A stretch of DNA of 64,000 nt, taken from Heterodontus francisci (lineage: Eukaryota). Of the stretch, positions 3,840-60,509 are shown piece after piece. Within the stretch, counting starts at the first letter, position 1, and each line of letters opens with the position of its first letter. The position numbers and the translations under genes were made by a program. Where the stretch lies: assembly GCF_036365525.1 (NCBI RefSeq), contig NC_090398.1:65270369-65334368 (forward strand), given 5' to 3'. The notes below the pieces were generated by a model. It searched no databases. It had not been told where the DNA came from and worked only from the letters and a program-made list of their open reading frames with translations.

Positions 3840-5070
3840 TGGGAGACAGAAAGCAGCAATGATTTTCAATAGAGCCTTCTTCTCATTCTGTCTCTCTCAC
3901 CCTGTCCAGACACTGCCTGAGAAATACCTCTCTCTTTCCCCCAACTCACTCCATGTCCCAGGACCAGTACCTGCTAAAGGCCTGCTAACAGACCCGAACC
4001 CGACAGGACTTGACGACATGTGTCGGGTTTGGGTCGGTCACTCTTCTGGGTCGAGCTCTTGGGCTCGGGTCGGACAAACACAGTATTAATTGGACTTGAA
4101 AGGTTGTTTAAAAAGATGAAGATTGGAGCCGCGAAGCCAGTGATTGTTTGGTCATGAGTTAAACTGAAACCCATGGAGTTGTGTCCAGCCAGGTTGTGCC
4201 AAACTGTACCAGTATCTGTATTGCTTAAACTAAACACAGCAATTGCCAGAAGGCTCAGTAAATATCAATATAAATTACCTAGACTCCTGCTTTACAGGTT
4301 GAAATAATTGCTGCAAGTTTATCCAGTGAGCAGCTGAAATGCAAAGAGTGATTAATTATTACAAAATGATGATAAAATATACAGTATTTGTATTAAAACA
4401 TATAACCTGTTCACTGTCAGGACTCTAGTCTACAGACACACACAGTACCTGACCGAACAACAGCGGACCCGAGCCCGACCCGACCATCCCTTCACTTCCC
4501 TTCCTGACACTCAACCTGCAAGACGCTACACCGCATGCGTGATGATGGCAAAGTGACGGCACCGGCTCACTGCGCAGACTCAGTTCCGACCCGGACTCCC
4601 AGCTCCGGTCAGTTTTTTTAAATTTCAATACTGACCAGCAGAGACTGACCGAGTGTGTTCGACCCGACCCGAACTGGACCCGAGCCCGAAAGCCGGAGCC
4701 GCAAGCTGGGCCCGAGCCGAGGCGGACACATGTGCTCGGGTCCCGATCGGGTTGGATTCGGGTATCCAGGCCTCTGGTGCACATTCCACACAGTCCCCGA
4801 CTCCCGCTGAACTTCCCCGCTATTCAATGTTAATCTCTGAACACATCTGCAGACTCGCTCCCAAACCTGATGTTGCTGCAGGAAGCAGATGTTGTTTGTT
4901 CACTTACCCCGGGACCCGGATGTCTCCATTCGCAGCTGATTTAAACAATCTTCCGCTCACTCACTGAATGACGCTCAGAGACAGTGTTGGGGGAAGGGGA
5001 GCGGATGCGCTTTTCCCATCATTATGACGTCATCAGTGGGCGGAGCTACACCGCGCGTACGCAGATCGCT
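3840..5070 (-). promoter_or_regulatory. Copy 1 of a CpG promoter/first-exon module, interrupted by a hAT MITE at 3975-4776
   Basis: TGACGTCA, GC box and CGGAAG at ~4950-5045; donor G|GTGAGA at 3900; homologous to 18500-18870, 42850-43280, 55790-56087 and 59550-59990. Confidence 0.55.
3975..4776. mobile_element. Non-autonomous hAT element (MITE-like) with a nested second hAT end
   Basis: Imperfect TIRs TAAAGGCCTG ... CAGGCCTCTG, many ACCCGA/TCGGGT subterminal repeats, right flank GTGCACAT (nTnnnnAn); uninterrupted paralogous site near 18545-18566; inner end CAGGACTCTA at 4418-4427. Confidence 0.75.
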
Positions 5071-6299
5071 GCAACAGAATTCAATGGGAACTTTCCCCAT
5101 TCCACCCTCATCAATGTGTGAACAATGAAACTGAACAAGGGGTGAGGGTGGAGGGAGGGTGGGGAGGGGTGGAGGGAATCTATAACCTCGAAAGCCAGGA
5201 GCTGATCCCATTTAGATGTTCAAATTGCCGTCTCTCCCTGCAGGGTGTTTGTTATTATTGAGACCCTCCTCTCAAAACAATCGGACAGAAACATTGGAGG
5301 AAGGAGGGAGTCGTTGTGTTTGCTGGGACCTTGTAGAATTCATTTCAGCCAGCAATGGTTTGTCTAACCGGAGTGAAACCAACGGTCAATGTGAGTAATA
5401 CCGAATGGCGATCTTCATCGTTTCATTCTAAACAAGAGACACGGAGCTGCCGCGATTACACCGGGCACACAAACACAGTGACAATGGAGCCCGTCCCAGA
5501 GTTTCATCTCCCGGTTGTTAAATGTCCTCATGTGCACAGTCTTTGCTGTGAATTTTCAGGGCTCAGTTGCCGATGTCTCGGGCTCTGTCCCTTAAACACA
5601 CGGAACCATGAGATCCTCACACTCCATTTTGAAAGATTTATGGACAGGAATTTTTCCAGCCTTTGATCCAGTCGATCATAACCTGCTGTTCAAACATAGT
5701 ATTGTTCAAACAATTAATGTGAAATTCTGTTCACTATCGGGCCTTGAACTCGGTTTGAGCAGACCAACCACTGAAAGATTCAGCATCTTTCCAGATATAG
5801 CAGCCAGAGCTGGATAAAGGGACTCAGGGTTTAATCTTGCACACACACAACAGAAGGAGTGACAGTCACACAGGAATGGGAACTGGTCTCGTTTCTGTCG
5901 CCTACTCACCCAGCAGGTAGAGTTAGAAACTGATTAAACATCCAACACACTGCAATTCTGTCCTGGAGAAATACAGAGGCTCTTCCATTCCATCCTTCCC
6001 TCCCGTACACTCGGCAGATTGACAGCACAAGGCCTTTCAGGTATCATTTCCGTGACCAAGAGTTTCACTCCGTTGATATTAAACAGAGACTATCAGATGT
6101 TTATCCTTCATCCTGGAAATACTCGGACTCACTCTTGCACTTCTACCACAATGTTTTGGACAATTGAGGAGCCGCCCCTGCACCCGCTCTCCTGCCTCAT
6201 TCAGACAACCTTCCAGTCTCAGCCTCACACACCTTACCAATAATTTGCTTTTGATCAATATGACTCAAAGATTGTTTGCAGCGCCAATCACTTAAATAA

Positions 6300-8424: not shown

Positions 8425-9062
<638 letters not shown>

Positions 9063-11114: not shown

Positions 11115-11295
11115 GCTTTTTGAGAGACGTTGTGGGTGGCTCTTAAAGTTCGAAACTGGCATTTTATACACATCCCCAGAGCTCTATGTTAATGAAGGAT
11201 GGGGTGAAAACCATGTTCGTAATTGGCTGGTTTACAATGAAGTCAATTCTTGAGATTCTGTATTTATCTGATTGGGTATCTAAAGTAACCAATCA
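11115..11295 (-). pseudogene. Histone gene relic: promoter fused to half a stem-loop, coding region deleted
   Basis: Minus strand: CCAAT boxes, CTTCATTAACATA, TGTATAAAAT, then ~13 nt later TTTAAGAGCCACCCA and AAAAAGCT; paralog at 36070-36252 (+). Confidence 0.55.
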
Positions 11296-11880: not shown

Positions 11881-11999
11881 TTACTGAAGGGAGATTTACA
11901 ACAAGTGTGAAACATCATGACAAGTGAGACAAGGATAAACAGTTCCCATTAGCTCATTGTACAAGGACATAGTGACAGAAATTGCGGATTTTGGGCAGG

Positions 12000-12847: not shown

Positions 12848-13339
12848 TATGTGAGTTTAACGTATGTAAATGAGTACATTATTCTGTATCATTTATTTTC
12901 TGTTATGTGACTATGTCTGGTTCCAGTTCATCATGTCAGCTTCTGGTACTCTGTATGAGGTGGGATTAATGTGGTGTATGTCAGTTTCTGGTACAGCCTG
13001 TGAGTGTGAATATATTTCTGTATCCATCAGTCTCTCAAACTGAATGTGAGTGTGGATTAATTCATTTATCATCCGTCTCCACAACTGACAGTGAGAATGT
13101 GATTCATTCAGTATCTCTCTGTTTCTGGTATTGTTTGTGAATGTGTTGCTTATTCTGTGTTTTTCTGTGACTGGTAGAGTTTGTGAGTGTGGCATTCATT
13201 CTGTACCTGTTAGGAAATATTATTGAATGGCATTGTGGACTCAGTGTTTTTTAGGCACTCCTACACTATGTGATTCAGATTTGTACTGTGTCCGTCTGTT
13301 TCACGTCATGTAATTGAGTGTGGGATGCATTATATAGCT

Positions 13340-13581
13340 NNNNNNNNNNNNNNNNNNNNNNNNNNNNNNNNNNNNNNNNNNNNNNNNNNNNNNNNNNNNN
13401 NNNNNNNNNNNNNNNNNNNNNNNNNNNNNNNNNNNNNNNNNNNNNNNNNNNNNNNNNNNNNNNNNNNNNNNNNNNNNNNNNNNNNNNNNNNNNNNNNNNN
13501 NNNNNNNNNNNNNNNNNNNNNNNNNNNNNNNNNNNNNNNNNNNNNNNNNNNNNNNNNNNNNNNNNNNNNNNNNNNNNNNNN
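13340..13581. other. Assembly gap (242 N)
   Basis: Run of N. Confidence 1.
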
Positions 13582-14737: not shown

Positions 14738-14821
14738 CTACTGTGTGTTGGAACAAGCTGGCTGCTCTTTTCCTTGTGTCCAGGAGTCAGGGCTTTCATT
14801 CTGGTTCCTTCAAATGTTTGC
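14738..14821 (-). other. Candidate 84-nt exon of an unidentified gene (copy A)
   Basis: TTCTTCCTGCAG|GCAAAC...ACACAGTAG|GTAGAT; homologous 84-nt segments at 43736-43819 and 58776-58859. Confidence 0.5.
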
Positions 14822-18499: not shown

Positions 18500-18870
18500 A
18501 GTGACGTCTCCCTTCCCCCCTGCTCACTCCATGTTCCGAGACCAGTTTCTGCTCCACAGTGCACATTGCAAACAGACCCCGTCTCCAGCTGAACTTCCCC
18601 GCTGTTCAATGCTAATCTCTGAGCACATCGACACAAGCTCCCAAACCTGGTGTTGCTGCAGCAAGCAGATGCTGTTTGTTCACTGACCCCAGGAACCAGA
18701 TGTTTCCTTTCGCCGCTGATCTAAACAATCTTCCGCTCAATCGGTGAATGGAGCTCACAGGCAGAGCTGGGGGAGGGCTGCGCATGCCGTCTTCGCCTCA
18801 TGATGACGTCATAGTGGGCTGCGTTACATCGCGCGTGCGCAGATCTCTGCAACAATTCAGCTTCAAAATT
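18500..18870 (-). promoter_or_regulatory. Copy 2 of the CpG promoter/first-exon module (no MITE)
   Basis: TGCGCATGC, TGACGTCA, CGCGCG and CGGAAG motifs; homologous to 4777-5070. Confidence 0.55.
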
Positions 18871-18883
18871 CAATGGGAACTTT

Positions 18884-22469: not shown

Positions 22470-23417
22470 ATGGCAGGAGATCTCAGACCCGTGTCATGCT
22501 CCTCTTGCTCAATGTGGGAGCTCAGGGACATGGCTGATGTCCCTGACTCCTTCACGTGCAGGAAGTGTGTCCAACTGCAGCTCTTGTTAGACCGCATGAC
22601 GGCTCTCGAGCTGCGGATGGACTCACTTTGGAGCATGCGCGATGCTGAGGAGGTCGTGGATAGCACGTTTAGTGAATTGGTCACACCGCAGATTAGGATT
22701 GCTGAGGGAGAAAGGGAATGGGTGACCAAAAGGCAGAGAAAGAGCAGGAAGGCAGCGCAGGAGTCCCCTGCGGTCATCTCCCTCCAAAACAAGTATACCG
22801 TTTTGGATACTGTTGAGGGAGATGGCTTACCAGGGGAAGGCAGCAGTAGCCAGGTCCATGGCACCGTGGCTGGCTCTGCTGTTCAGAAGGGCGGGAAAAA
22901 GAGTGGAAGGGCTATAGTCGTAGGGGATTCGATTGTAAGGGGAGTAGATAGGCGGTTCTGTGGTCGAAAACGAGGCTCCCGAATGGTATGTTGCCTCCCA
23001 GGTGCACGGGTCAGGGATGTCTCAGATCGGCTGCAGAACATTCTAAAGGGGGAGGGTGAACAGCCAGTTGTCATTGTGCACATAGGCACTAATGATATAG
23101 GTAAAAAACGGGATGATGTCCTACAAGCAGAGTTTAGGGAGTTAGGAGCCAAGTTAAAAAGTAGGACCTCAGAGGTAGTAATCTCAGGATTACTACCAGT
23201 GCCACGTGATAGTCAGAGTAAAAATGAAAGAATTTTCAGGATGAATGCGTGGCTTGAGAGATGGTGCAGGAAGGAGGGGTTCAGATTTTTGGGACATTGG
23301 GACCGGTTCTGGGGGAGGTGGGACTATTACAAATTGGACGGTCTACACCTGGGCCGGACTGGAACCAATGTCCTTGGAGGTGCTTTTGCTAACGCTGTTG
23401 GAGAGGGTTTAAACTAA
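22470..23417 (+). CDS. CR1 ORF1 protein (Cys zinc finger, coiled coil, SGNH esterase-like domain)
   Basis: 315 aa; CxxC...CxxC, then GDSIVRG, HIGTND and DGLH blocks; TAATG stop/start overlap with ORF2. Confidence 0.92.
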   Translation: MAGDLRPVSCSSCSMWELRDMADVPDSFTCRKCVQLQLLLDRMTALELRMDSLWSMRDAEEVVDSTFSELVTPQIRIAEGEREWVTKRQRKSRKAAQESPAVISLQNKYTVLDTVEGDGLPGEGSSSQVHGTVAGSAVQKGGKKSGRAIVVGDSIVRGVDRRFCGRKRGSRMVCCLPGARVRDVSDRLQNILKGEGEQPVVIVHIGTNDIGKKRDDVLQAEFRELGAKLKSRTSEVVISGLLPVPRDSQSKNERIFRMNAWLERWCRKEGFRFLGHWDRFWGRWDYYKLDGLHLGRTGTNVLGGAFANAVGEGLN

Positions 23418-28423: not shown

Positions 28424-28495
28424 TGCGATGGCCGAGAATCCAAAGCAGGCCAACTGCTTGGAAGGCAGCTGTGCTCACCACTATAGCACCATCGC
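28424..28495 (-). tRNA. tRNA-Gly(TCC) pseudogene
   Basis: 72 nt GCGATGGTGCTATAGTGGTGAGCACAGCTGCCTTCCAAGCAGTTGG...CCATCGCA; acceptor and anticodon stems pair, T-arm/B box destroyed. Confidence 0.85.
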
Positions 28496-29074: not shown

Positions 29075-29705
29075 ATTGTACCTGTCAGTTCATGGCATGT
29101 GAATGTTGATTTTACTCTGCACCTGTCAATTCCTGGTATGTGAATGTTGATTTTGCTCTGCACCTGTCAGTTCCTGGTATGTGAATGTTGATTTTGCTCT
29201 GCACCTGTCAGTTACTGGTATGTGAATGTTGAATTTACTCTGTACCTGTCAGTTCCTGGGATGTGAATGTTGATTTTACTCCGTACCTGTCAGTTCCTGG
29301 TATGTGAATGTTGATTTTACTCTGCACCTGTCAATTCCTGGTATGTGAATGTTGATTTTGCTCTGCACCTGTCAGTTCCTGGTATGTGAATGTTGATTTT
29401 CCTCTGTACCTGTCAATTCCTGGTATGTGAATGCTGATTTTACTCTGTACCTGTCAGTTCCTGGTATGTGAATGTTGATTTTATACTGCACCTGTCAATT
29501 CCTGGTATGTGAATGTTGCTTTTACTCTGTACCTGTCAATTCCTGGTATGTGAATGCTGATTTTACTCTGTACCTGTCAGTTTCTGGTCTGTGAATGTTG
29601 ATTTTACTCTGTACCTGTCAGTTTCTGGTGCATGAACGTTGATTTTACTCTGTATCTGTCAGTTCCTGGTTTGTGAAGGTTGATTTTACTCTGTATCTGT
29701 CAGTT
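29075..29705. repeat. 41-bp minisatellite, ~15 homogeneous units
   Basis: Unit CTGTACCTGTCAGTTCCTGGTATGTGAATGTTGATTTTACT (period 41, e.g. 29101 and 29142). Confidence 0.95.
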
Positions 29706-32700: not shown

Positions 32701-34164
32701 CAGCAACTAACCCCAGAGATTCACAGTAAAGACTGTGTAAATGAAGACATTTAACAACCGGGAGCTGAAACTCTGGGACGGGCTCTATTGTCACTGTGTT
32801 TGTGTATCCGGTATAATCGCGGCAGGTCCGTGTCTCTTGTTTAGAATGAAACGATGAAGATCGCCATTCTGTATTACACACATTGACCGCGGGTTTCACT
32901 CCAGTTAGACAAACCTTTGCTGACTGAAATTAATTATTCAAGGTCCCACCAAACACACCGGCTCCCTCCTTCCTCCCATGTTTCTGTCGGATTGTTTTGA
33001 GAGGAGAGTTTGAATAATAACAAACACCCTCCAGGGAGAGGCGGCAATTTGAACATCTAAATGGGATCAGCTCCCGGCTTTCTAGGTTATAGATTCCCTC
33101 CACCCCTCCCCACACTCCCTCCACCCTAACCCCATGTTCAGTTTCATTGTTCAGACATTGATGAGGGTGAAATGGGCAAAGGTCCCTTAAATAAAAGCAA
33201 AATATTGCGGATGCTGGAAATCTGAAATAAAAACAAGAAATGCTGGAATCACTCAGCAGGTCTGGCAGCATCTGTGGAAAGAGAAGCAGAGTTAACGTTT
33301 CAGATCAGTGAACAAATTTCCCATTGAGTTTTGAAGCTGAATTGCTGCAGAGATCTGCGCACGCGCGATATAACCCAACCCACTATGACGTCATCATGAG
33401 GCGAAGACGGCATGCGCACCCCTCCCCCAGCTGTGTCTGTGAGCGCCATTCACCGAGTGAGCGGAAGATTGTTTAGTCATGTCAAGCAGGAGAAGATCTT
33501 AAGAACATAACAAAGATGACCAAGAGTAGGTTATTTGGCCTCTCCACCCTACTCTGCCATTTAATATGATCATGGCTGATGTGATTGTGCTTTACTTGAC
33601 TTTCCTGGCTGTCCCAAAAACGCTTTACTGCCTTGCAGATCAAAACTCTATCTATCACAGCCATGGACTAACAGTTATATAATGCACCCCACACTCAATT
33701 ACATGACGTGAAACAGATGCACACAGTACAAATCTGATTCACATCGAGTAGGAGTGCCTAAAAAACACTGAGTCCACAATGCCATTCAATAATATTTCCT
33801 AACAGGTACAGAATGAATGCCACACTCACAAACTCTACCAGTCACAGAAAAACACAGAATAAGCAACACATTCACAAACAATACCAGAGACACAGAGATA
33901 CTGAATGAATCACATTCTCACTGTCAGTTGCGGAGACGGATGATAAATGAACTAATCCACACTCACATTCAGTTTGAGAGACTGATGGATACAGAAGTAT
34001 ATTCACACTCACAGGCAGTACCAGAAACTGACATACAGCACATGAATCCTACCTCATACAGAGTACCAGAGGCTGACATGATGAACTGGAACCAGACATA
34101 GTCGCATAACAGAAAATAAATGTTGCAGAATAATGTACTCATTTACATACGTCAAACTCACATA

Positions 34165-36069: not shown

Positions 36070-36252
36070 TGATTGGTTACTTTAGATACCCAATCAGATA
36101 AATACAGAATCTCAAGAATTGACTTCATTGTAAACCAGCCAATTACGAACATGGTTTTCACCCCATCCTTCATTAACATAGAGCTCTGGGGATCTGTATA
36201 AACTGCGAGTTCCGAATTTAAGAGCCACCGACAACGTCTCTCAAAAAGCTAC
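36070..36252 (+). pseudogene. Histone gene relic, second copy (promoter + half stem-loop + HDE-like)
   Basis: CCAAT at 36090 and 36139, CTTCATTAACATA 36168-36180, TGTATAAA 36195-36202, TTTAAGAGCCACC from 36217. Confidence 0.55.
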
Positions 36253-41449: not shown

Positions 41450-42510
41450 GTAGAGTTCCCAGGACAGGTTTTGATCTCTCTGCTGAGGTCAATAGACCCT
41501 TCAGCTCCACTCTATCCAGGCCGTTCAACATTTTATACATTTCAATCAGATCTCCCGTCAGCCTTCTCTGTTCCAAGGAGAACAACCACAGTCTTTCCAA
41601 TCTTTCCTCATAGCTGCATTTTTCAGTCCCAGCAACATCCTCGTAAATCTCCTCTGTCCCCTCTCTGGTGCAGTTACATCCTTTCTGTAATGAGGTGACC
41701 AGAACTGCACACAGGACTCAAGTTGTGGCCTAACCAATGATGATAAAGTTCCAGCATAACCTTCCTCCTCATATATTCTATACCTCGGCTAATAAAGGCA
41801 TGGATTCCATATGTCTTCTTAACCATATTACCGCACTGCCCTGTCACCTTCAGGGATCTGTGGACATTTATTCCAAGGTCCCTCACCTCCTCTGCACCTC
41901 TCAGTATTTTCTCATTAATCGTGTATTCCTTTGCATTGTTTGACCTCCCCAAGTGCATCACGTCACACTTCTCCGGGTTGAATTCTATGCACCACTTTTC
42001 TGCCCTTCTGATCTGACCATAAACATCTTCCTCCAGTCCACAGCAATCCTCCTCTCTATCTACCACACGGCCAATATTGGTGTCGTCTGTAAACTTCTTG
42101 ATCGTGTCCCTCAACATTTATGTCCAACCTGTTCATATAGATCATCAAAAAAACAGGGGACCCATTACTGAGCCCTGGGGAAAACCACTGGAAACAGCCC
42201 TCCAGTCTCAAAAGCAGCCGTCAACAATTACTCTGCGTTTCCTTCCACTGAGGCAATTTTGCATCCACCTTGCTGCATTTCCCTGTATCCCATTAAATTT
42301 TATTTTATAAAGAGTCTGCATTTTGGGGCCCTGTCAAAAGCTAAAATTCATGTAGAATCCATCAACTGCTCTACCCTGATCTATCATCCTTTTAAAAATT
42401 CAATTCAGTTGGTATGTGCCTTTCTAAGTGACAGTTTATCTTGTCTCAGAATAGATTTCAATAATTTACCCACTGCTGAGGTTAGACTGACTGGCCTGTA
42501 ATTATTGAGT
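41450..42510 (-). mobile_element. CR1 ORF2 (RT) fragment
   Basis: ORF 41674..42117 (KFTDDT, EKW.IEFNPEKC.VMHLGRSN); paralog at ~60510-61560 (+). Confidence 0.88.
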
Positions 42511-42849
42511 TTTAGGCTGAACTGTAAGATTCGTTTTATCTCGAAAGATCCGCCTGGGGAAACAGACGCTACAATCTGATTAAATTGATCTCTGACTGCA
42601 ACTATCAGATATTAACTCCTGCCCCATTCCGGCAAACACATCGACTCCCTCGGAGGATCACTTTGAGAATTCGAGCTAATGAACAGCAAACATAGTGCAG
42701 AGAATGATCTCAAGTTGAGCTTGGTAAAGGGGTCATCTCCCAGCTGGAATCCTTCTCTAATCTTGCCCACAGTCCCGGTTCCATTGCTCAAAATCAGATA
42801 AAACTGAACTGGAGAAAGTTCCGATTGATTTTTGTTTTTCAAGCTGTTG

Positions 42850-43280
42850 CCGAATGAAGCGCATGCGCGGTACAGCCCCGCCTCCACCGGTGATTGTGAA
42901 TGAGCGAACGAGCGCATGCGCGCTCCCCTATTCCAGCAAATCTGTTGAACGCCATTTACTCAGTGAGCGGGAAGAGTTTGTTTTTAACAGAGGGAATGGA
43001 GATATTGCAGCCTAGGGGTAAGGCAGTAAACAGCAATCTGCTTCCAGCAGCACATTGCTTTGGGATCCTGTCCGCAGTCTGGACCAGAGATCTCCATTGA
43101 CTCCGAGGCAAGTTCAGGGGGCGTCGCGGGCTGTTTGTGAGAGGCAGTGTGGAGGATGAACTGATCCCGGAACATGGAGTGAGCGGCGGAATGGAGAGGC
43201 CTTTCTCGGCCTGTGTGTGCACTAGGTAAGTGAGACAGAACGTGAATAAGCTGCTGTTGAAAATCTTTGCTGTTTCCCGC
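42850..43280 (+). promoter_or_regulatory. CpG promoter + first exon of an unidentified gene
   Basis: GCGCATGCGC twice (NRF1-type), GC box, GCGGGAAG; strong donor AG|GTAAGT at 43226; paralog at 59550-59990 (-). Confidence 0.6.
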
Positions 43281-43349
43281 CTCAGTTCTGTAATACATGT
43301 TCGTGGTTTAACTCCTGTTTCACGCTGTTTACTGTGAGTGTACCTTTCA

Positions 43350-43455
43350 AGAGTTCACCTGCCTCGGCTCAACTATCACCAGTAACCTGTCTGTAGATGC
43401 AGAAATCAACAAGCGCATGGGTAAGGCTTCCACTGCAATGTCCAGACTGGCCAAA
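43350..43455 (+). mobile_element. RTE-clade LINE RT fragment
   Basis: Translates as EFTCLGSTITSNLSVDAEINKRMGKASTAMSRLAK, the RTE/BovB-type FxYLGS...EIxxRIxKA motif. Confidence 0.75.
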
Positions 43456-43735
43456 CCTGATCTGCACAAACATCACTCAGGTAATCGCAATCTTGGAAGA
43501 GTGCAGATGTTGCCTTGTTTCTGGATGTCACTAAATTGTTGTAAATCGGTTAAAACACCTGGTCAGCAGATGCTGAGATCTGCAGTGAAATCAGACACTG
43601 ACATTCTTTGTATTTCTGGTGAGTATTTGTGGTTAGTAATAATGATTATTAATTTAAATGTTACATTAATCTCTTTTCTAGCTTCCACCTCAACTGATCT
43701 TCTGTTACAAGATATATTGTTCTTCCTTTCTGTCG

Positions 43736-43819
43736 GCAAATACTTCCAGGGAACAGAATGAATGTGATGATTCCCAGGCACAAGGAAATGTGCAGTCAGC
43801 TCCTTGCAACACAGAGTAG
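43736..43819 (+). other. Candidate 84-nt exon (copy B; acceptor AG mutated to CG, alternative AG at 43681)
   Basis: Homologous to 14738-14821 and 58776-58859; unspliced read-through gives the 92-aa ORF 43758..44036. Confidence 0.45.
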
Positions 43820-44114
43820 GTTTGTTATCACTCCCAGAGGCCATCAGTTAATTCCAGATTCACATGGAGCAGAAATAGTCAAACTCTCACTGATCTCAAG
43901 TTCAGAGACACATTTTCAATCCAGCAATCAAACAAAGCAGAAGAGACAGACATTGTTTCGAATCCATTCCAATTCTGTACTGCTGCAAGTTAGGTGCCTC
44001 AATCTCAATTCAAAAGCAAACCCACGATCAAATTGAAAGACACTATATCAATCTCACAAGAGGGACACATCCTGGAGACAGTAAGATAGAGAGTAAATCT
44101 CACCCTCACATACC

Positions 44115-44622
44115 TGAAACTGTGTGCAGTTCTGGTCACCTAATTACAGAAAGGATGTAACTGGACTGGAGTGTGTACAGAGGAGATTTATTTGGATGTT
44201 GCCAGGGCTGGAAAAATGCAGCTGTGTGGAAAGATTGGATAGGCTGCGGTTTTTCTCTTTGGAACAATGAAGGCTGAGGGGAGATCTGATTGAAATCTAT
44301 AGAATTTTGAGGGACCTGGACTGTGTGGAGGTGAAGGGTCTATTCACATTAACAGAGAGGTCAGTGATGAAGGCCAGAGATTTAAAGTGATTGGTAGAAA
44401 AATTAGAGGGGAGATGAGGGAAAGAAAATCACCCAGAGGGTGTTGGGGGTCTGGAACTCACTGCCTGAAAGGAAAGTTGAGGCAGGAACCCTCAACTAAT
44501 TCAGAAGTACTCTGGCTAGGCACCTCAAATGCATTCAACTGCAGGGTTCCAGACCAAATCCTGGAAGGTTGGATTAGAATAAGTGGCCTCTATCCGTGCC
44601 TTAGACTTTCTATGATTCTATG
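44115..44622 (+). mobile_element. CR1 3' fragment
   Basis: TGTGTGCAGTTCTGGTCACC...AGGCTGAGGGGAGATCTGATT..., ending TTCTATGATTCTATG. Confidence 0.8.
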
Positions 44623-47600
44623 GAACTGATGATTAAAAGAAAATAAACACATTCCTATACTGTAAACAGACAGACACAGAGTGAAATTCACATTTACAAA
44701 TTATTAAAGAGTTAAAGTAAAGATTAAAACCTCCAGCCACAGAAGGGAGACTGACAGCTCCAGAGAAGAAAATAAAACCACTCACATGCAAGAGACTGTC
44801 AGATAGAGTATAACACCAGAGTCACCTAACAGTGACAGACAGTTACCACGTAAAACACATGGACACATACCAGAGACTAAGAGGGACAAAGGAAAATCAA
44901 TTCTCCAATAAGAGAAATTGAATGAGAGGAATAACACACATACATGTGTAGTAGACATTGATAGCTGCAGAACAAAAGAAAATGTGCACACACACCTATC
45001 AGGAACTGTAAGCTGCAGATTAAAACACACAGACCAAAAATAGAAAGGTTCAGAGAAAAGCCCCATATCACAGACTCGAGTTTGAAAGATACAGAATAAA
45101 CCCACACTGTTATATATTAACTTTACAGGTGCAGCTTAACAGTGACACTCACATACCAGAAACGAACTGGTGCAAAGTAAAACTCACTCAAGTAACAGAA
45201 ACTGACAGGTAAAGATCAAAAACCATAATTATATACAGAAAATGGCAGGTATAGAATAAAATAACAATCACATATTGGAAGTTGGCAGGTGGGGGGGGGG
45301 GGGGGCGGGGCGGGAACACCTTCATGTTCCATAAACTGACAGGTACAGAATAAAATAAATATTCATATACTATCAATGGACAGGTGCAGATTTAACCCCT
45401 CATTCAATTAACAGAAGCTGAAAGGTGCTCACTCAAATTCCAAAAGTGAAAGTAACAGAATAAACCCACATTCACACACCAGATACTGACAGGAACAGAA
45501 CCCACATTCCATTCACAGAAACAGATAGGGACAGAACAAAGGCCACAATCACATACCAGAAACTGACAGGGAAAGATAAAAACCTTCACAAATTTCAGAA
45601 AGTAACAGGTGCAGGATAACTGCCTCCCTCACATATGAGAAACTGACAGTGACAGGTTGATACCCAGACTCTCATACTAGAAAATAACAGGTAAAGATTA
45701 AAATCTACATATACATATCAGAAAATAGCAAATGCAGTATAAAAGCCACACTCAACGAGCAGAGACTGACAGACACAGAGTGAAATCCACAGTGAATTCC
45801 AAGAAATTTACTGTTAGAGAGTGAAAATCTCTCATCCATAACTGACAGACACAAAGAAAACCCAACACTTGCACTTCACAATCTGACAGATGCAGAATAA
45901 AACACACACATAATTAAGAAGATTTATAAACCAGATACTGACAGAGACAGACTAAAACTCAATGTCACATAACATAAACTGACAGATGCAGAATAAATTC
46001 TGCAGTCACAGACCAGAGAATGAAATGTACAAAGTAAACCTCACAGACACATGTCAGAAATTGCCATGTACAGATTAAAAATCACACAAACATTCTGGAG
46101 AATGTAGACATGTGGTGTACAATCCAGACTCTAAAGCCAGACTGAAAATCGTACTTGTATACCAGAACATGACATAGACAGGTTAAAAACCATAAGTGCA
46201 CATTAGAAATTTAAATGCACAGGTTAAAACTTAAATTTACAAACCAGACAATCAAAGATAAAGAGTGAACACCACTCATATACAAGAAAGTGTTCGATTA
46301 ACAGTCAAACCCACATTCACATGCAATAAACTGAGGGGCACAAGTTCAAGAAACACAAACAAACATCAGAAACTGAAAGATACAGAATAAGATGTTTCTC
46401 ACATAAAACAAAGTGACAGATACAGATAAACCCACACTCAAAATCAGAAACTGACAGAGATAAACTGTAGACTAGGGATTGAGAGAGAAAGAGTGAAACT
46501 TACACCCGTGTCCAAGAAACTGAATAATACAGCAAAAGAAGTGAAAAAAAACACTCACGCACGATAAAAGAATAAAACTGCACTAACACACCAGAAACTG
46601 ACAGGCATGAAGCAAACCCCCGTGCCACCCCCACCCCCTCCCCCCGCACCCAATACAGAAAAACACAACAGAAACTGACAGCCATGAAATAAAAGCTACA
46701 CACACATACCAGAAAGTGACAAGTACAGTTCCATACTAAAAAATACAAGGAAACAAGATAAAAACCAACACTCACGATTCTGAGTTAGACTGAGGTAGAG
46801 CAAAATCTTGATGCACATACCAGAGACTGACTGGTACAGATATAAAACTCAATCAATAAGAAAGTGTGAGGTGCAGAGTAAACCCCACAAATGGGGATCA
46901 GAATGAAACTGGTACAGAGTAAAATTCAAACCAACTTTTCAGAAACAGACAGGTAACAAGAAGAAAGAAAGACACAACCTCAAAGACCAGAGTATGAGGG
47001 TTACAGAGTAAAACCCATGCTCGTTAATCAGGAATTGCCATGTGCAGAATTAAAAACCTCGCATTCACACTAGAAACTTACAGGTACAAAGGAAATCCCA
47101 CACTCACACTTCAGAGACTGACAAATATTCAGAAAAAATACCGTTTTAACATAGACTGACAGGAACAGAATTAAGCACACCATCAAGATAAACAAATGGC
47201 AGATTCAGCATAAATCACAAATTCCCATTGCAGGGATTGACATGCACAGAGTAAAATGAACACCTATTCCGCAGAAATTAACAATCACCCTTTAAAAGTA
47301 CAGTCACAGAATAGAAACTGTCCGTTCAAGGTCGAAGCAGATTCACAGAACAAATTGAAATATACAATGTGAACCTCCTACTCAAACACCAGAAGCTAAT
47401 AGGTACACAGTAAAACTGATAATGACATACCAGACACAGACAGACAGAAAAAAGCCAATATCACGTAGCAGAATCTGACAAGTACAGAATAAAATGTATA
47501 GTAGCATATCAGATATTGACAGGAAAAGCACTACCATAAAGCAACAAGTACAGAATAATGGCCATACTGACAAGTGTGATATTGATAGGTACAGGGAAAA

Positions 47601-47959
47601 CTTTACACTCACCAGAGACATGCAGAAACAGAATAAAACCCACATACAGATAAAGTAACTCAGAGGTACATAGTAAAATCCACATTCACATGCCAGAAAC
47701 AGACAGGGAAAGTAAAACATATCCTCACAAATCATGCACAGACAAGTACAGAGTAATAGCGGCATTCACATTACAGAGACTGACAGATGCAGGGTAAAAT
47801 CCACAATCAATTACCACAAACAAAAAGGTACAGAATAAAACAGATATTTGCTTTGCAGTAAATGACAACATGCTGGGTAAAATCCACATTCCCATATCAG
47901 AAATGAAACGGTGAAGAGTGATCCCACATTCACTCACCAGAATAAAGAAGGTACAGTGT

Positions 47960-48170
47960 AAATGAAAGCAGAAAATGCTGGAAATACTCTGCAAGTCTGG
48001 CAGCACCTGTGGAGAGAGGGAGACAGTTAAAATTTCAGAACAATGATGAACGGCTATTGACCTGAAAGGTTAACTCTGTTTCTGTCTCCACAGATGTTGG
48101 CAGGCCTGCTGAGTGTTTTACATCATTTTCTGTTTTTTAATTTCCAGCATTCACAGTATTTTGCTTTGTA
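47960..48170. mobile_element. Penelope-like terminal fragments, inverted pair
   Basis: Same motif family, more diverged. Confidence 0.55.
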
Positions 48171-48649
48171 TTATGTTCAATGTAAAGAGCTTTCTGCTAC
48201 TCCAGAAATTTACAAGTACAAAACAATGCTCATTCTCACATAACAGATAGTGAGACATTCAAACCAAAACCACTGTTCACTTCAGCAGAAACTGACAGGT
48301 ACATTACAAAACCAACACTTACATACCAGAAGCTGATAGATGCATAATAAAACCCACACTCACATCAGAAGTTGGCAGGTACAGTGGAAACCCTATATGT
48401 GTTTATCAGATACAGAGAAAAACCCACAGTCACATTCCACATTCTGAGATAAAGAATAAATCCCTCCCTCTCATACTATACAAAGAGGGACAGATAGTTG
48501 GACAGATCTAGATGTGTAAGAGTTTCTTCATTGTTTTTTAAATATAAACAAACAGATCCTGTCTTTCAGACTGACAGATGGAGAATGACTTCCACACTCA
48601 TACTGTACCAGTGATGAACAGACACAGAACGAATGTTATTCATATACAC

Positions 48650-49285
48650 ACCTTTATGATTATTTGTAGTGTATGTTTATGGGATGTGAGCATCTCCAGG
48701 AAGGCCAGTAATAGTTGTCCATCCCTCATTGCCATTTAGAAGATGGTGTCTTGTGGCCTTCTTGCTCCCTCCAGTATTTGTAGTGTAGGTACACCCAAAG
48801 TGGTGTTAGGCAGGGAGTTGCAGAATTTGGACTGAGTGATGATGCAGGAGTGGTGTTATTTTTCCAAGCCAGGATGACATATGAACTGGTGATGTAATTG
48901 CAGGTTGTCATGTTCTCATACGTTTCCTGCCCATGTTCTACTTTGTAGCAGATGTCGTGGGTTTGGCAGGTGCTGTTTCATGGTGCTTCCTCTGGTTGAT
49001 GCAGTACGTCTTGTAGATGGTACACACTGTGCACTGGTGGTGGAGGGAGTAAATGGTTAAGCTGGTGAATGGTAAGCCAATCAAGCCTACTGCTTTGTCC
49101 TGGATGGTATAGGGTTTCTTGAGTATTGTTAGAGGTGCATACATCCAGGCAAGTGGGGAGTAATCCATCAGACTTCTGACTTGTGGCTTGTCAGTGGTGG
49201 AAAGTCTTTAAGGAGTTTGGACGTGAGTTACTAACCACAGAGTTTCCGGCTTTTGAGCAGCTCTGGAAGCCATAGTGGTAATATG
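48650..49285 (-). mobile_element. LINE 3' fragment (CR1/L2-group)
   Basis: ORF 48938..49168 MDYSPLAW...TIQDKAVGLIG...SLHHQ resembles a LINE ORF2 C-terminus. Confidence 0.6.
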
Positions 49286-51237
49286 GCAGGAAAAGTGTAA
49301 ATCCTGCAGTCATTTCCCATAAAGTAACATGCACAGAATAATGGGCATATGAAACAAGATAATGACAGGCCGAGGACACAAGCCACAATCACTAATCATA
49401 GGCTTGTGGATACAGAATAAAACCCACAATCACATACCAGTAACTGAGAGATGCATCGTAAAATCCACATTCATGTGTCAGGAACAGAAAGGGAAAGTAA
49501 AAACACTTGCTGACAAATCTGACGCAGACAGACACAGAGTAATAGCAACATTCACATTCCAGAGACTGACAGATATAGAGCAAAAGCTCCAATCAATTAC
49601 AAGAAACAAACAGGTACAGAATAAAATACTTACTTGCTTTGTAGTAACTGACAGATACAGAATAAAATCCACATTCACATATCAGAAACTGACAGGTGAA
49701 GAGTAAAAGACACAGTAACATGTCACAAACTGACAGATACATGGTGATCTCACATTCACTTGTCAGAATATAAAAGGTAAAGAATAAAATTATTTCTTCC
49801 AGACCAGAAACTGAGAGGCACAGAATAAAGGAGCGCCTTTTATTGCAGTAACTGACCAGAACAGAGGAAAATCCATATTCACATGTCAGAAACTGACAGG
49901 AACAGAAAGAACACACACTCACATACCAGAAATTGGCACACAGAATAAAATTCACACGCGCATTTCAGAAATTAACTTTACAGATGAAAATCCACAATCA
50001 TACAGCAGAAAGTGAGATGTACAATTAAACCCAGCTTCTGACACGTGAGGCTAACACACACAGAGTAAAAACAATGCTCATGTCACGTACCAGAAACAGG
50101 CAGATGCAGATCACAACCCACACTCACATATCAGATACTGGCAGTTACCGTGTAAAATAACTCTTAATGATCACTGACAGGGATATGATACACTCCACAT
50201 TCATTCATCAGAAAATTACAGATACAGATAATAAACAGTACTTACATAAAACAGATTGGCAGGAACAGGTTAAAACATACCATCATATATAGATGTCTGA
50301 TAGGTACAGAATACAGTCGAGGCCTCCAAACCAGAGACTGACATGTCGAGTGAAAACTAGACTCACCTGTCATCAATTAACATGTGCAGTGTGAAGCTAT
50401 ACAAACATATTACTGACTAACAAGTACAGAGGCAAAATCAAACAACCTTCCATAGCAGAAACTGACAGGTACAGATTAAACTCCAAATTCACATATCGGA
50501 CACTAACAAAGAGAAAGGCCCAGACTTCCATAAGTTTAGTTTCAATAATTAATAAGTACATTATTTAGAAACCCCGGTTGTGTCGGAACCCTCAGTCTCA
50601 CTCTTTAACACCTCACACTGAAAATCCACACTCCTCTTTTGTCTCCCACGAATCGGGACCAATTTATAATGCGAGATGCGTTTTTTCTAACATTGATCTG
50701 AAATGTATCCGGTTACAGAATGTTGTGAATGAGACTTTTTGCCTGCCGGTTACAGACTGTTTTAAAACAGGACAGAGAATGAAGCCGAATAGATGTCGGA
50801 TTGGAAAAGCGAAACTGGAACTTGTGAGAAAATGTGAAATAATACAATATGGGGGATATTTTTACATCCCTGTCGTAAGGCTATATGATCTATTAACGTG
50901 ATCTGTAGTGAAGCCGCTCCTTGTTTTACAAATCTGTTGGCGGGCTTTTCAAATTTGAAAAAGAAGCTGTTTGGAGTCTGCCAATCCTGAGCGGTTATTT
51001 TCCGCCCTATTAACGTGATGCCTCCGGATTGGTGAACTAAGCAACTATCTGATTGGTAACATGAACAACACAATGAGAAGCTGCACAGAGTGACCAATCA
51101 CCAGTGTCCTCACTATCATTCATCCAGAAGGGATAAGTGGACGGATTTGATCATTCTTCCTGAACTGTTTTGTAATGTAGTTTTTACAGATTTTTATGAT
51201 GAAAGATTTTTTTTTGGAGGGGGCGGGTGGGGTGTTA

Positions 51238-51520
51238 ATGTTTGGAAGAGGGGAAAACCGGTGGTAACCCTCAGTCCAAAGCCAAGTCTCACTCCTCTCA
51301 GTCTGGACTGCAGTTCCCGGTTGTTCGTGTTCACTGGCTCCCGAGAAATAGGGAACGATGCTGAGCGTGTGGGTGCCGGAGCCCCGGTCTATCTGGCTGC
51401 TGTGCTCGAGTATCTGACAGATGGAATCGTCGAACTAGCCGGCAACGCGGCCCGGGACAACAAGAAGACGCGCATCATCCCCAGACACCTCCAGCTGGCC
51501 CAAAGGCTCTTTTCAGAGCC
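51238..51520 (+). pseudogene. H2A: H2A pseudogene (5' frameshifts, 3' deletion up to the stem-loop)
   Basis: [20 protein letters not shown]...IIPRHLQLA joined directly to CAAAGGCTCTTTTCAGAGCC (stem-loop 51505-51520). Confidence 0.93.
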
Positions 51521-51777
51521 ACCCACTTTATCTGTGAAAGGGCTGGTTCCTGTCTGAGAGACACATTTGTGTTGCTATGATTCGGGATTTAGCCGCTTGC
51601 CTCTGGAGATATTTGTCAGGCATTTTAACAATTCCAGCGTTTCTGCACAAATAAAGCTTTTGTTTAGTCCTAAACTGCTCGCCCCTCCAGTAAAATGATC
51701 TGTGCACATTGGTTTCGCTGCTCTAGACCACATTTCTCTGCTGCAGAGATCGCAGCTCTTTGTTTTGCCGGTTTGGT

Positions 51778-55300: not shown

Positions 55301-55789
55301 CAGCAAAGACTGTGTACATGAGGACATTTAACAACCGGGAGCTGAAACTCTGGGACGGGCTCTATTGTCACTGTGTTTGTGTGTCCGGTATAATCGCGGC
55401 AGCTCCGTGTCTCTCTTGTTTAGAATGAAACAATGAAGATTGCCATTCGGTATTACTCACATTGACCGCGGGTTTCACTCCGGTTAGACAAACCTTTGCT
55501 GGCTGAAATGAATTCTACAAGGTCCCAGCAAACACACCGACTTCCTCCTTCCTCCCATGTTTCTGTCGGATTGTTTTGAGAGGAGGGTCTCAATAATAAC
55601 AAACACCCTGCAGGGAGAGACGGCAATTTGAACATCTAAATAGGATCAACTCCCTGCTTTCTGGGTTATAGATTCCCTCCACCCCACCCCACTCTCCCTC
55701 CACCAATCCCCACCCTTCCTCCACCCTAACCCCATGTTCAGTTTCATTGTTCACACATTGATGAGGGTGAAATGGGGAAAGTTCCCATT

Positions 55790-56087
55790 TATTTTCGTTG
55801 CAGAGAGCTGCGCACGCGCGGTATAGCCCCGCCCACTGGAGACGTCATCATGAGGAGAAGAGCGCATGCTCCCCCAACACTGGTTCTGAGCGTCATTCAG
55901 TGAGTGAGTGGAAGATTGTTTAGATCAGCTGCGAATGGAGTCATCCGGGTCCCGGGGTAAGTGAACAAACAACATCTGCTTCCAACAGCAACACCAGGTT
56001 TGGGAGCGAGTCTGCAGATGTGTTCAGAGATTAACATTGAATAGCGGGGAAGTTCAGCAGGAGTCGGGGACTGTGTGGAATGTACAC
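55790..56087 (+). promoter_or_regulatory. Copy of the CpG promoter/first-exon module
   Basis: Inverted paralog of 4777-5070. Confidence 0.55.
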
Positions 56088-56740
56088 TAGAGCCCTGGAT
56101 CCCCGAGTCCAAACCGAGCGGGACCCGAGCACATGTGTCCGCCTCGGCTCGGGCCCAGCTTGCGGCTCCGGCATTCGGGCTCGGGTCCAGTTCGGGTCGG
56201 GTCGGACACACTCGGTCAGTCTCTGCTGGTCAGTATTGAAATTAAAAAAAACTGACCGGAGCTGGGAGTCCGGGTCGGAATTGAGTCTGCGCAGTGAGCC
56301 GGTGCCGGCACTGTTATCACGCATGCGCTGCACCTTTTTTTGGTTGGGTGTCAGGAAGGGTTGGGTCGGGTCCGCTGTTGTTCGGTCGGGTTCTTGGTGT
56401 GTGTGTAGACAGGAGTCCTGACAGTGAACAGTTTATATTTTTTTATATAAATACTGTATATTTTATAATCATTTTACGATAATTATTCATTCAGGACCTT
56501 CCTGCTCTCTGCATTTCAGCTGCTCACTGGATAAATTTGCCGCAAGTATTTCAACCTGTAAAGCAGTAGTTTACATAATGTATAATGATATTTACTGAGC
56601 CTTCGGGCAATCGCTGTGTTTAGTTAAGCAATACAGATACTGGTAAAGTGTGGAAACAACTCCATGGGTTTCTATTTAACTCATGACCAAACAATCACTG
56701 ACATTGTGCTCCAATCATCATCTTTTAAACAATCTTTCAA
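56088..56740. mobile_element. hAT MITE end (paralog of 4096-4776)
   Basis: ATGTACAC target followed by TAGAGCCCTG terminus and CCCGA/TCGGG repeats. Confidence 0.75.
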
Positions 56741-57051: not shown

Positions 57052-58412
57052 ATGTAGATCTGCAGTACTGTAGACTAATGATCAGACAGCACTGGGAATA
57101 TGCAGTACTGTAGACTAATGATCAGACAGCACCGGGAATCTGCAGTACTGTCGACTAATGATCAGACAGCACCGGGAATCTGCAGTACTGTAGAGCAATG
57201 ATCAGACAGCACCGTGAATCTGCAGTACTGTAGACTAATGATCAGACAGCACTGGGAATATGCAGTACTGTAGACTAATGATCAGACAGCACCTGGAATC
57301 TGCAGTACTGTAGACTAATGATCAGACAGCACCGGGAATCTGCAGTACTGTAGACTAATGATCAGACAGCACCTGGAATCTGCAGTACTGTAGACTAATG
57401 ATCAGACAGCACCGGGAATCTGCAGTACTGTAGACCAATGATCAGACAGCACTGGGAATCTGCAGCACTGTAAACTAATGATCAGGCAGCACTGGGAATC
57501 TGCAGTACTGTAGACTAGTGATCAGACAGCACCGGGAATCTGCAGAACTGTAGACTAGTGATCAGACAGCACCGGGAATCTGCAGAACTGTAGACTAATG
57601 ATCAGGCAGCACCGGGAATCTGCAGTACTGTAAACTAATGATCAGGCAGCACCGGGAATCTGCAGTACTGTAGACTAGTGATCAGACAGCACTGGGAATA
57701 TGCAGTACTGTAGACTAATGATCAGACAGCACCTGGAATCTGCAGTACTGTAGACTAATGATCAGACAGCACCGGGAATCTGCAGTACTGTAGACCAATG
57801 ATCAGACAGCACTGGGAATCTGCAGCACTGTAAACTAATGATCAGGCAGCACTGGGAATCTGCAGTACTGTAGACTAGTGATCAGACAGCACCGGGAATC
57901 TGCAGAACTGTAGACTAGTGATCAGACAGCACCGGGAATCTGCAGAACTGTAGACTAATGATCAGGCAGCACCGGGAATCTGCAGTACTGTAAACTAATG
58001 ATCAGGCAGCACCGGGAATCTGCAGTACTGTAGACTAGTGATCAGACAGCACTGGGAATATGCAGTACTGTAGACTAATGATCAGACAGCACCTGGAATC
58101 TGCAGTACTGTAGACTAATGATCAGACAGCACCGGGAATCTGCAGTACTGTAGACCAATGATCAGACAGCACTGGGAATCTGCAGCACTGTAAACTAATG
58201 ATCAGGCAGCACTGGGAATCTGCAGTACTGTAGACTAGTGATCAGACAGCACCGGGAATCTGCAGAACTGTAGACTAATGATCAGGCAGCACCGGGAATC
58301 TGCAGTACTGTAAACTAATGATCAGGCAGCACTGGGAATCTGCAGTACTGCAGACTAGTGATCAAACAGCACCGGGAATCTGCAGCACTGTAGACTAATG
58401 ATCAGACAGCAC
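57052..58412. repeat. 40-bp minisatellite, ~34 units, with a 360-bp higher-order repeat
   Basis: Unit TGCAGTACTGTAGACTAATGATCAGACAGCACCGGGAATC; the variant pattern recurs at 57361, 57721 and 58081. Confidence 0.97.
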
Positions 58413-58775
58413 CTCTTTACCCTCTCTCGTGCAGTTACATCATTTCTGTAATGAGGTGACCAGAACTGCACACCGTTTCAGGTATGTGAGGGTGAGATTC
58501 ACTCTCTATCTTACTGTCTCCAGGATGTGTCCCTCTTGTGAGATTGATATAGTGTCTTTCAATTTGATCGTGGGTGTGCTTTTGAATTGAGATTGATGCA
58601 CCTAACTTGCAGCAGTACAGAATTGGAATGCATTGGACACAATGTCTGTATCTTCTGCTTTGTTTGATTGCTGGATTGAAAATGTGTCTCTGAACTTGGG
58701 ATCAGTGAGGGTTTGACTAGTTCTGCTCCATGTGACTCTGGAATTAACTGATGGCCTCTGGGAGTGATAGCATAC

Positions 58776-58859
58776 CAACTCTGTGTTGCAAGGAGCTGAC
58801 TGCACATTTCCTTGTGCCTGGGAATCTTCACTTTCATTCTGTTCCCTTGAAGTATTTGC
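58776..58859 (-). other. Candidate 84-nt exon (copy C)
   Basis: TTCTTCCTTTCTGAAG|GCAAAT...CAGAGTTG|GTATGC; read-through ORF 58559..58837 (92 aa). Confidence 0.5.
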
Positions 58860-59159
58860 CTTCAGAAAGGAAGAACAACATATCTTGGAACTGAAGATCG
58901 GTTGAGGTGGAAGCTAGAAAAGAGATTAATGTAACATTTGAATCCATAATCATTATTACTAACCACAAATACTCACCAGAAATACAAAGAATGTCAGTGT
59001 CTGATTTCACTGCAGATCTCAGCATCTGCTGACCAGGTGTTTTGGCCGATTTACAACAATTTAGTGACATCCAGAAACAAGGCAACATCTGCACTGCTCC
59101 AAGATTGGGATAACCTGAGGGATGTTTGTACAGATCAGGTTTCTATTTCCATCTGACAT

Positions 59160-59549: not shown

Positions 59550-59990
59550 GGCGAGAAACAGCAAAGATTTTCAACAGCAGCTTATTCACGTTCTGTCTCA
59601 CTTACCCAGTGCACAAACACAGGCCGAGAAAGGCCTCTCCATTCCGCCGCTGACTCCATGTTGCAGAATCAGTTCATCCTCCACATTGCCTCTCACAAAC
59701 AGCCCGCGACTCCCCCTGAACTTGCTCCGGAGTCAATGGCGATCTCTGATCCAGACTGCGGACAGGGTCCCAAAGCAATGTGCTGCTGGAAGCAGATTGT
59801 TGTTTGCTGCCTTACCCCGAGGCCGTAATATCTCCATTCCCTCTGTTAAAAACTAACTCTTTCCGCTCACTGAGTAAATGGCGTTCAACGGATTTGCTGG
59901 CGGAGGGGAGCGCGCATTGCGCTCGTTCGCTCATTCACAATCACTGGTGGGGGCGGTGCTGTACCGCGCATGCGCCTCATTCAGCAATGG
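59550..59990 (-). promoter_or_regulatory. CpG promoter + first exon of the unidentified gene (paralog of 42850-43280)
   Basis: GCGCATGCGC, GC box, CGGAA; donor G|GTAAGT at 59605. Confidence 0.6.
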
Positions 59991-60509
59991 TTTGAAAAAC
60001 AAAAAACAATCGGAACTTTCTCCAGTTCAGTTTTATCTGATTTTGAGCAATGGAACCGGGACTGTGGGCAAGATTAGAGAAGGTTTCCAGCTGGGAGATT
60101 ACCCTTTTACCAAGCTCAACTTGAGATCATTCTCTGCAAAAAGTTTGCTGTTCATTCGCTCGAATTCTCAAAGTGATCCTCCGAGGGAGTCGATGTGTTT
60201 GCAGGAATGGCGCAGGAGTCAATTTCTGACAGTTACAGTCACAGATCAATTTAATCAGATTGAAACTGTCTGTCGCTGAGAGTCATTGCGAAGGGTTTGA
60301 GCTGAAAGATTACAGAGAGTTCAACAGGGCAGAGAAAGTTACACTTGGGACATTGTATGCCTCACTCTCTGACACTTTCCCGGACTGTGAGATTAATAAT
60401 GTGTCTTCCTCTGGCACCATATCAGTGAGAGATGAGATTGTAGCGTCTGTTTCCCCAGGCGGATCTTTCGAGATAAAAACGAATCTGACATTTCAGTCGA
60501 CAGCACAAT

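Follow-up and report, generated by a model that had tools for sequence, protein, structure and literature searches.

Replication-dependent histone genes are usually treated as intronless, with one compact S-phase promoter, and the exceptions known to us add exons at the 3' end. What, then, is the multi-copy and apparently spliced sequence that accompanies the histone genes in the 64-kb stretch of Heterodontus francisci DNA analyzed here (the window)? A preliminary description of this stretch had read a CpG-rich module and an 84-nt segment as the first two exons of a lineage-specific gene family co-amplified with the histones, offering an orphan peptide, a lncRNA or the 5' part of C2H2 zinc-finger genes as its possible nature. 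The explanation we favor, to which we assign a probability of roughly 0.7, is that the module belongs to a spliced unit providing a distal second promoter and untranslated leader exons for shark H2B, the window copies being orphaned leaders, which we read as such because H2B has been deleted from their unit.

Six CpG-rich modules in the window

Six homologous CpG-rich modules are indeed present where they had been placed. Copy B has its CpG-rich promoter at 42820..43040 (+), with NRF1-type sites at 42859 and 42912 and a GC-box-like site, and lies head-to-head with H1. Copy C, with promoter and exon 1 at 59605..60014 (−) and 92–93% identity to copy B, continues with an exon 2 at 58977..59114 (−; coordinates projected from copy B, 96% match) and an exon 3 at 58776..58859 (−) with AG and GT intact, and its downstream homology stops at 58412. 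Copy D (promoter and exon 1 at 18500..18880, −) has a rearranged donor region and a LINE downstream; its exon 3 is the 84-nt segment at 14738..14821 (−), and a search for its exon 2 found none. Copy F (33318..33476, +) is a truncated D-type promoter fused to a D-type downstream spacer. Copy A (promoter and exon 1 at 3900..5090, −) is split by an inserted repeat at ~4000–4780 that occurs a second time at an unrelated locus, and its exon 3, of a 71-nt type, lies ~3.5 kb left of the window. Copy E (55782..56740, +) is an A-type promoter truncated before the donor, positions 4096–9296 matching 56740–51579. The donors at 3900 (GTGAGA) and at 43226 and 59605 (GTAAGT) occupy one homologous alignment column, as proposed. 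The exon at 14738 is real as well, but its partner is the module at 18500–18870 and not the one at 3840–5070.

The set of NRF1-type, CRE, GC-box and ETS-like motifs attributed to the module is present, but not every motif occurs in every copy: among the six window modules, the perfect NRF1-type 10-mer is confined to 42859, 42912 and 59966, the CRE to 5025, 18804 and 33386, and the ETS-like site to the 42850 copy. Two promoter words gave 114 and 46 exact matches within the arrays versus 0 and 2 for the reversed controls, which rules out chance for the repetition of the module. Genome-wide, exact matches of the two words numbered 114 and 50, one representing a dispersed module and 4 of the 50, on contigs C11, C12 and C34, being rejected as chance; two motif matches beside zinc-finger genes on C34 were dismissed as chance 17-mers. 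At copy B, RNA-contig cover starts at ~42981–43047 and is near zero at 42500–42763. Variability at the CpG sites of its promoter among 35 copies was not higher than at other sites (0.33 versus 0.27), and the window promoter still resembles an unmethylated CpG island in its behavior.

Exons and splicing in RNA contigs

Evidence for splicing was drawn from contigs of five coded runs (X1–X5) from two studies, whose RNA status is taken from their splice junctions, the run records carrying no RNA label. Three of the five runs, covering both studies, contributed: contigs of X3 and X4 contain the joins 43225>43481 (GT..AG) and 43618>43736, and a single X2 contig spans exon 1 and exon 2 with the intron absent. 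The proposal of multi-copy 5' exons that are truly spliced and co-amplified with the histones holds. The three 84-nt segments lie at 14738–14821, 43736–43819 and 58776–58859, each followed by GT and two of them preceded by an acceptor AG, as reported, that of the 43736 copy reading CG. The segment is a spliced exon, but the third rather than the second, since a 138-nt exon precedes it. Accordingly, the junction that had been anticipated, 43225>43682/43736, resolves into two joins, 43225 to 43481 and then 43618 to 43736, with the acceptor at 43682 used in a paralogue.

Exon 1 of copy B extends over 43034..43225 (+; 5' end approximate), with its donor GTAAGT at 43226 joined to 43481; this donor 6-mer is intact in 35/35 copies of the B/C type. 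Exon 2 (43481..43618, +; 138 nt), joined at both ends in the contigs, is an optional exon, whose acceptor AG is found in 29 of 30 copies and whose donor GT in all 30. Exon 3 (43682..43819, +) consists of the 84-nt core at 43736–43819 and an extension to the alternative acceptor at 43682, 54 nt upstream, and ends at a donor GT at 43820 that is present in 62 of 63 copies across six subfamilies. That this donor is invariant in six subfamilies in which 40% of the columns are so is suggestive only. In a loose end of X2, a paralogue uses a different, second donor of exon 1, joined to the acceptor at 43682; the 30-nt junction word has 0 matches in the genome, its exon part 36. Another loose end, in X1 and X2, shows a direct join of exon 1 to exon 3, this exon 1 being that of one single copy at C45:8.72 Mb.

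After exon 3, two fates were seen, read-through of the donor or contigs stopping at 43819–43820. The main B-like contig of X3 continues past the exon-3 donor at a depth of 95, versus 81 for the spliced contig; B-type read-through reaches a depth of 8 in X1 and X2, and the summed depth past exon 3 in X1, X2 and X5 drops from 600–1600 to 8–43. That many molecules leave at the exon-3 donor is thereby only hinted at, contig depth being a poor measure. X1 and X2 include exon-3 contigs identical to the window copy; this core sequence is common to 29 loci, so that the locus of origin is not singled out.

Between subfamilies, the exons are not better conserved than the introns (65–81% versus 75–79%), and the splice sites of exons 1 and 2 shift or disappear. 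Within the B/C type, the splice dinucleotides are not clearly better preserved than other GT and AG dinucleotides (11/26 and 13/22 intact). Exons no better conserved than introns, together with the turnover of all splice sites except the exon-3 donor, speak against strong selection.

Copy number and histone repeat context

Histone repeat units contain at least 160 copies of the module. For two exon types, the search gave 40 or more close matches each (40 scored out of 521 and 1526 first candidates, respectively), and among the matches listed most lie on C45 at 8.7–14.2 and 17.2–19.3 Mb, with the remainder on C21, C28 and small contigs. The histone repeat unit in a 160-kb stretch of C45 is a palindrome, each half of which carries three to four module genes, and the dispersed B-type copies examined are head-to-head with H1. 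The window had suggested two clearly diverged subfamilies; the 63 distinct exon-3 copies now fall into six, 65–88% alike. Repeated insertion of a solo LTR or other mobile element into histone clusters would account for the high copy number and for the layout of promoter plus donor, but the copies have in common kilobases of flanking sequence, old LINE fragments and a position relative to H1 and H2A, which argues that they spread with the histone repeat unit and not as single insertions; we regard a mobile element as highly improbable.

Two local peculiarities were noted in passing. At C45:10330300–10334700 (L127–L128), a TC-rich repeat of 4.3 kb stands behind one tandem leader copy in place of the 41-bp repeat described below, and 10 kb or more of the window's unit recurs with 99% identity on another large contig (C21:85.91–86.03 Mb), representing a recent duplication or an assembly duplication.

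A probable connection to H2B in other arrays and other sharks

In the C45 array at 8.7–14.2 Mb, the modules are followed, 10–17 kb downstream and on their own strand, by H2B and then H2A. H2B was encountered downstream on the module strand in all five multi-tile stretches scanned there, the sixth stretch being a single tile without H2B. These H2B-bearing repeats contain one to four leader units in tandem between H1 and H2B, oriented toward H2B. A pyrimidine tract lies just upstream of the H2B TATA box; its two AGs precede the ATG by 80 and 75 nt, and at least one acceptor AG is kept in six of six H2B-bearing copies.

This acceptor had been predicted from the sequence before the protein model XP_067878434.1 came into view. 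The model has 39 extra N-terminal residues, the first 12 of which have their only matching place in a SINE that interrupts exon 3 in the array's first copy, and one GT-AG join, C45:8722561>8706022 (a 16,538-nt intron, to the first AG), reproduces 165 of its 165 residues; its donor sits within the SINE in exon 3, unlike the family's usual donor. Two further H. francisci H2B models enter at the second AG, coming from unplaced upstream sequence. The SINE itself (L117 7510–7610, −; C45:8.7226 Mb) carries a target-site duplication inside exon 3 and provides both the ATG and the donor of XP_067878434.1; the SINE-in-exon-3 sequence was found in contigs of both organisms.

We scored 18 long N-terminal extensions of shark H2B models against exon 3, using a frameshift-tolerant profile, shuffles and an antisense control. 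Three of the 18 matched, namely Mustelus asterias XP_078057554.1 and XP_078060343.1 (z 21 and 27) and Stegostoma tigrinum XP_059498003.1 (z 12), with 38–63 bits versus at most 21 bits for the antisense control; the other 15 long extensions tested gave no exon-3 match. Plain protein alignment agrees for the Mustelus extensions. Starts or frames of the exon-3-derived extensions differ among all three species, a pattern consistent with an untranslated leader whose upstream ATG happens to be in frame in some cases. Moreover, several Mustelus H2B models that differ in their upstream sequence converge at a common position ahead of the ATG, and isoform labels are attached to many shark H2B models. 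The joining of exon 3 to the H2B acceptor stands at the annotation level only, in automated gene models, those of Mustelus and Stegostoma being covered here as proteins; the two stretches compared with RNA contigs contain no H2B, and no contig with such a join was seen. With exon-3 homologues fronting H2B models in two other shark orders, the family is co-amplified with the histones, as described, but is not lineage-specific in the narrow sense.

Loss of H2B from the window's repeat type

Downstream of the window's copies, H2B was found neither in the window nor in its flanks (104 kb around) nor in the 160-kb stretch of C45. That the preliminary description recognized no downstream coding exon in the window is explained by the deletion of H2B from the window's unit. 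For copy B, the deletion whose junction lies at 50526..50542 (+) has taken away the H2B acceptor together with promoter and coding sequence; the alignment to an H2B-bearing homologue skips from 10595 to 14444, a 3.8-kb piece, the H2B ATG of the homologue lying at 13690. The first histone sequence downstream of copy B is a broken H2A with a stem-loop (51237..51545, +; Rfam Histone3 at 51500–51545), and several other histone genes of the window are altered or broken. Downstream of copies D and F, H2B remnants persist at 11135..11245 (−), where promoter and second acceptor AG (ending at 11184) are kept, and at 36120..36229 (+) with the same deletion; in both, the missing sequence starts just past the TATA box and reaches halfway into the stem-loop. 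Of ten copies from H2B-less units, none retains the first AG and six have lost both, these counts going back to one shared deletion and hence not being independent. The H2B-less repeat type keeps H1, H4, H3 and H2A (window 11135–11168, −, and 36197–36229, +; L042, L048, L059, L213 and L216–L219) and comprises the sampled C45 array at 17–20 Mb plus dispersed units on C21 and C28.

Between exon 3 of copy B and the deletion junction lies a decayed 41-bp minisatellite with LINE and SINE insertions (44620..50526, +; period 41 by autocorrelation, ~70 unit matches), which is collinear with the H2B-bearing type at 78–87%. Contigs of X3 and X4 of up to 1.5 kb cover this repeat, and continuous contigs reach 50400. 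A search for a conserved fourth exon within the repeat spacer revealed no conserved acceptor outside transposon fragments. The repeat units are enriched in donor-like words (16 versus 3.9 expected) and in AATAAA (25 versus 5.8 expected). The 41-bp repeat may represent the leader intron in H2B-bearing units that is read through in the window's type. As orphaned leaders, the window copies are likely to yield only spliced non-coding RNA, partly running into the ~6 kb of decayed repeat.

These features can also be read in another way, namely that exons 1–3, with the 41-bp repeat as last exon, constitute an independent family of spliced lncRNAs in the histone spacer, and that the joins to H2B reflect occasional read-through splicing without a role. 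The dominance of exon-3 donor read-through in X3, the contigs spanning the repeat and its enrichment in donor-like and AATAAA words would suit such a family, as would its persistence and expression in H2B-less units and the presence of up to four tandem copies for each H2B. Set against this are the models from three shark orders that join exon 3 to H2B, the decay of the acceptor where H2B is lost, and the lack of conserved structure and of any Rfam match for the family (see below). We therefore consider the independent lncRNA family unlikely, albeit the most serious competitor of the leader interpretation. The lncRNA option in the preliminary description suits the window's own copies, but the family as a whole is better explained as an H2B leader.

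Coding potential

A protein-coding role was looked for at several levels. The ATG frame is, as stated, the only one open in all three 84-nt segments, but its ATG is not conserved family-wide, being present in 0/6 and 1/3 copies in two of the six subfamilies. In the window, the ATG frame corresponds to a 92-codon ORF (43758..44036, +) that is open in the B/C copies without purifying selection and that we do not consider a gene. The dN/dS check gave an omega of 2.2 in B/C and of 1.6–1.7 across subfamilies, read from point estimates and shuffles rather than from fixed-omega likelihood runs; 6 of 53 variants are synonymous, 12.9 being expected. Across the family, ORF length ranges from 1 to 105 codons (33–105 in subfamily Y, 21 in D), and spliced forms containing exon 2 have five ATGs upstream of the 92-codon ORF.

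The frame starting at the first base of exon 3 gave an omega of 0.44–0.58, with P = 0.001 in the first set. With 41 (B/C) and 32 (Y) copies, P rose to 0.03 and 0.13; the frame has no ATG and, in 37 of 41 B/C copies, is closed by a stop at codon 28, the signal continues past this stop, and the codon-position counts are flat (23/25/27). We rejected this purifying signal, which faded with more copies, as weak and not credible.

Protein searches with the 92-residue ORF found no homologue in a collection that includes this genome's annotated proteins, and the 85-residue alternative frame matched nothing among longer proteins. The sole match among 1.84 billion representatives was to a Cys/His-rich repeat protein, unnamed and 1352 residues long, whose ends look like a signal and an anchor; it is the sum of 21-residue pieces at ~45% and was judged to be chance. 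A Pfam search returned nothing, Rfam and ARAGORN returned histone stem-loops only, plus one weak tRNA-like match, and consensus folding revealed no conserved structure (SCI 0.13–0.32, z below 0.2).

A family of short peptide genes, in the ATG frame or the exon-first-base frame, possibly fast-evolving or serving as an N-terminal H2B extension, could draw on the 92-codon frame being open in 21 of 21 B/C copies without an indel (P = 0.09 for no stop), on exon lengths of 138, 54 and 84 that are all multiples of three, on the initial omega of the first-base frame and on the Mustelus extension, which is in the ATG frame and resembles the peptide. It conflicts with an omega above 1 in the ATG frame, with the missing ATG in eight of nine copies of two subfamilies, with early stops in other subfamilies and a 71-nt exon in one, with the fading of the ATG-less first-base signal, with the Stegostoma extension in another frame and with the missing homologue among the genome's annotated proteins. 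We consider a peptide family very unlikely, and the orphan-peptide option, burdened by dN/dS values of 1.6–2.2, subfamilies lacking the ATG and the want of a protein homologue, fails.

The idea of 5' exons of C2H2 zinc-finger genes fares no better. Zinc-finger genes typically have CpG/NRF1 promoters and short leader exons, and clusters of such genes lie on the same contig C45 at 0.4–2.9 Mb. However, the zinc-finger linker motif is absent from the window, from 20 copies with ~8 kb downstream and from 160 kb plus 104 kb of continuous sequence, and neither the 20 zinc-finger loci compared nor the 10 kb upstream of 20 showed homology to the module or exons. With no zinc-finger motif or homology near the module, the probability of this option is practically negligible.

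A possible mechanism and its relation to known systems

On the leader interpretation, the CpG-island/NRF1-type promoter would drive an H2B mRNA, bypassing the TATA/CCAAT histone promoter; the 41-bp repeat spacer would be removed as an intron of 10–17 kb, and short upstream ORFs may damp H2B translation. The whole histone repeat would have multiplied after the leader arose, and one derived repeat type would have lost H2B before dispersing to C21, C28 and a portion of C45. Promoters in these H2B-less units would still fire, with spliced non-coding RNA as the product, some of which would extend into the repeat. A more far-reaching version, which we put forward tentatively and hold to be possible rather than probable, is that the leader family is conserved in at least three shark orders and serves a replication-independent supply of H2B (some isoforms being N-terminally extended) in long-lived non-dividing or germ cells, the freed leaders constituting a new lncRNA family.

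If the leader interpretation is true, a repeat-borne distal promoter with spliced leaders, apparently common to three shark orders, would represent another uncoupling of a core histone from S phase, and the H2B-less units would exemplify the origin of lncRNA genes from a leader deprived of its coding exon. If the joins to H2B are mere leakage, we are dealing with an ordinary multi-copy lncRNA.

Replacement histone genes such as H3.3 are solitary and have 5'-UTR introns, a housekeeping-type promoter and non-coding first exons. The shark unit resembles them in the housekeeping-type promoter and the non-coding first exons ahead of the histone ORF; whereas H3.3-type genes are solitary variants, the shark leader would be added to tandem, stem-loop-bearing H2B genes that retain their own promoter. 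Human replication-dependent histone genes (HIST1H2BC, H2BD, H2BK and others) give rise to spliced polyadenylated mRNAs, and polyadenylated replication-independent histone variants are mentioned as well (PMC5100578). Here, too, canonical cluster H2B genes are concerned, and the spliced mRNAs may supply histone outside S phase; in the human type, however, splicing starts from a donor at the stop codon or beyond it, in transcripts from the gene's own promoter, whereas in the shark 5' exons from a separate CpG promoter 10–17 kb away would enter upstream of the H2B TATA box, unlike the 3' splicing in human (PMC5100578). At newt histone loci, satellite DNA is transcribed by read-through from histone promoters (Diaz and Gall, as cited in PMC11602149 and PMC5615363). 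The likeness consists in a transcribed tandem repeat between histone genes; newt transcripts, as portrayed there, run out into the satellite, whereas in the shark a dedicated promoter and spliced exons would run through the repeat toward a histone gene (PMC11602149, PMC5615363).

The NCBI models XP_067878434.1, XP_078057554.1, XP_078060343.1 and XP_059498003.1 have the same exon ahead of H2B; they are automated and named just histone H2B-like. We found no description of a distal spliced leader for shark H2B in the literature covered, subscription journals being mostly outside its scope. A preprint (10.1101/2025.06.08.657570) mentions, in its accessible part, histone-tRNA co-clustering and not the leader family.

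Other elements in and around the window

Some further observations concern the histone genes and repeats themselves. At C45:8.70–14.08 Mb (L118, L121, L123, L130, L133, L135), H2B and H2A are arranged head-to-tail on one strand; the usual H2A/H2B arrangement is a divergent pair. A conserved acceptor-like site is located ~160 nt past the H2B stop (L135 ~5550, +; window ~11024, −) and, together with shark H2B models whose C-terminus is extended (P0080, P0124), hints at 3' splicing of the human type. Young, homogeneous minisatellites of 41, 40 and 29 bp were seen in the window at 29077–29705, 57058–58413 and 1199–1717, and also at C45:18128408–18130250, the young 41-bp array being a fresh relative of the decayed minisatellite that follows the leader. 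Broken DNA-transposase-like ORFs, which we take to be hAT-like, lie immediately downstream of copy A (window 1952–3549, −), and a 609-codon version is found at C45 ~18.087 Mb. A near full-length LINE occupies 22470–26165 (+), its frames presumably being ORF1-like, endonuclease-like and reverse-transcriptase-like. The weak tRNA-like Rfam match (28424–28495, −; 32.9 bits) adjoins a SINE-like repeat.
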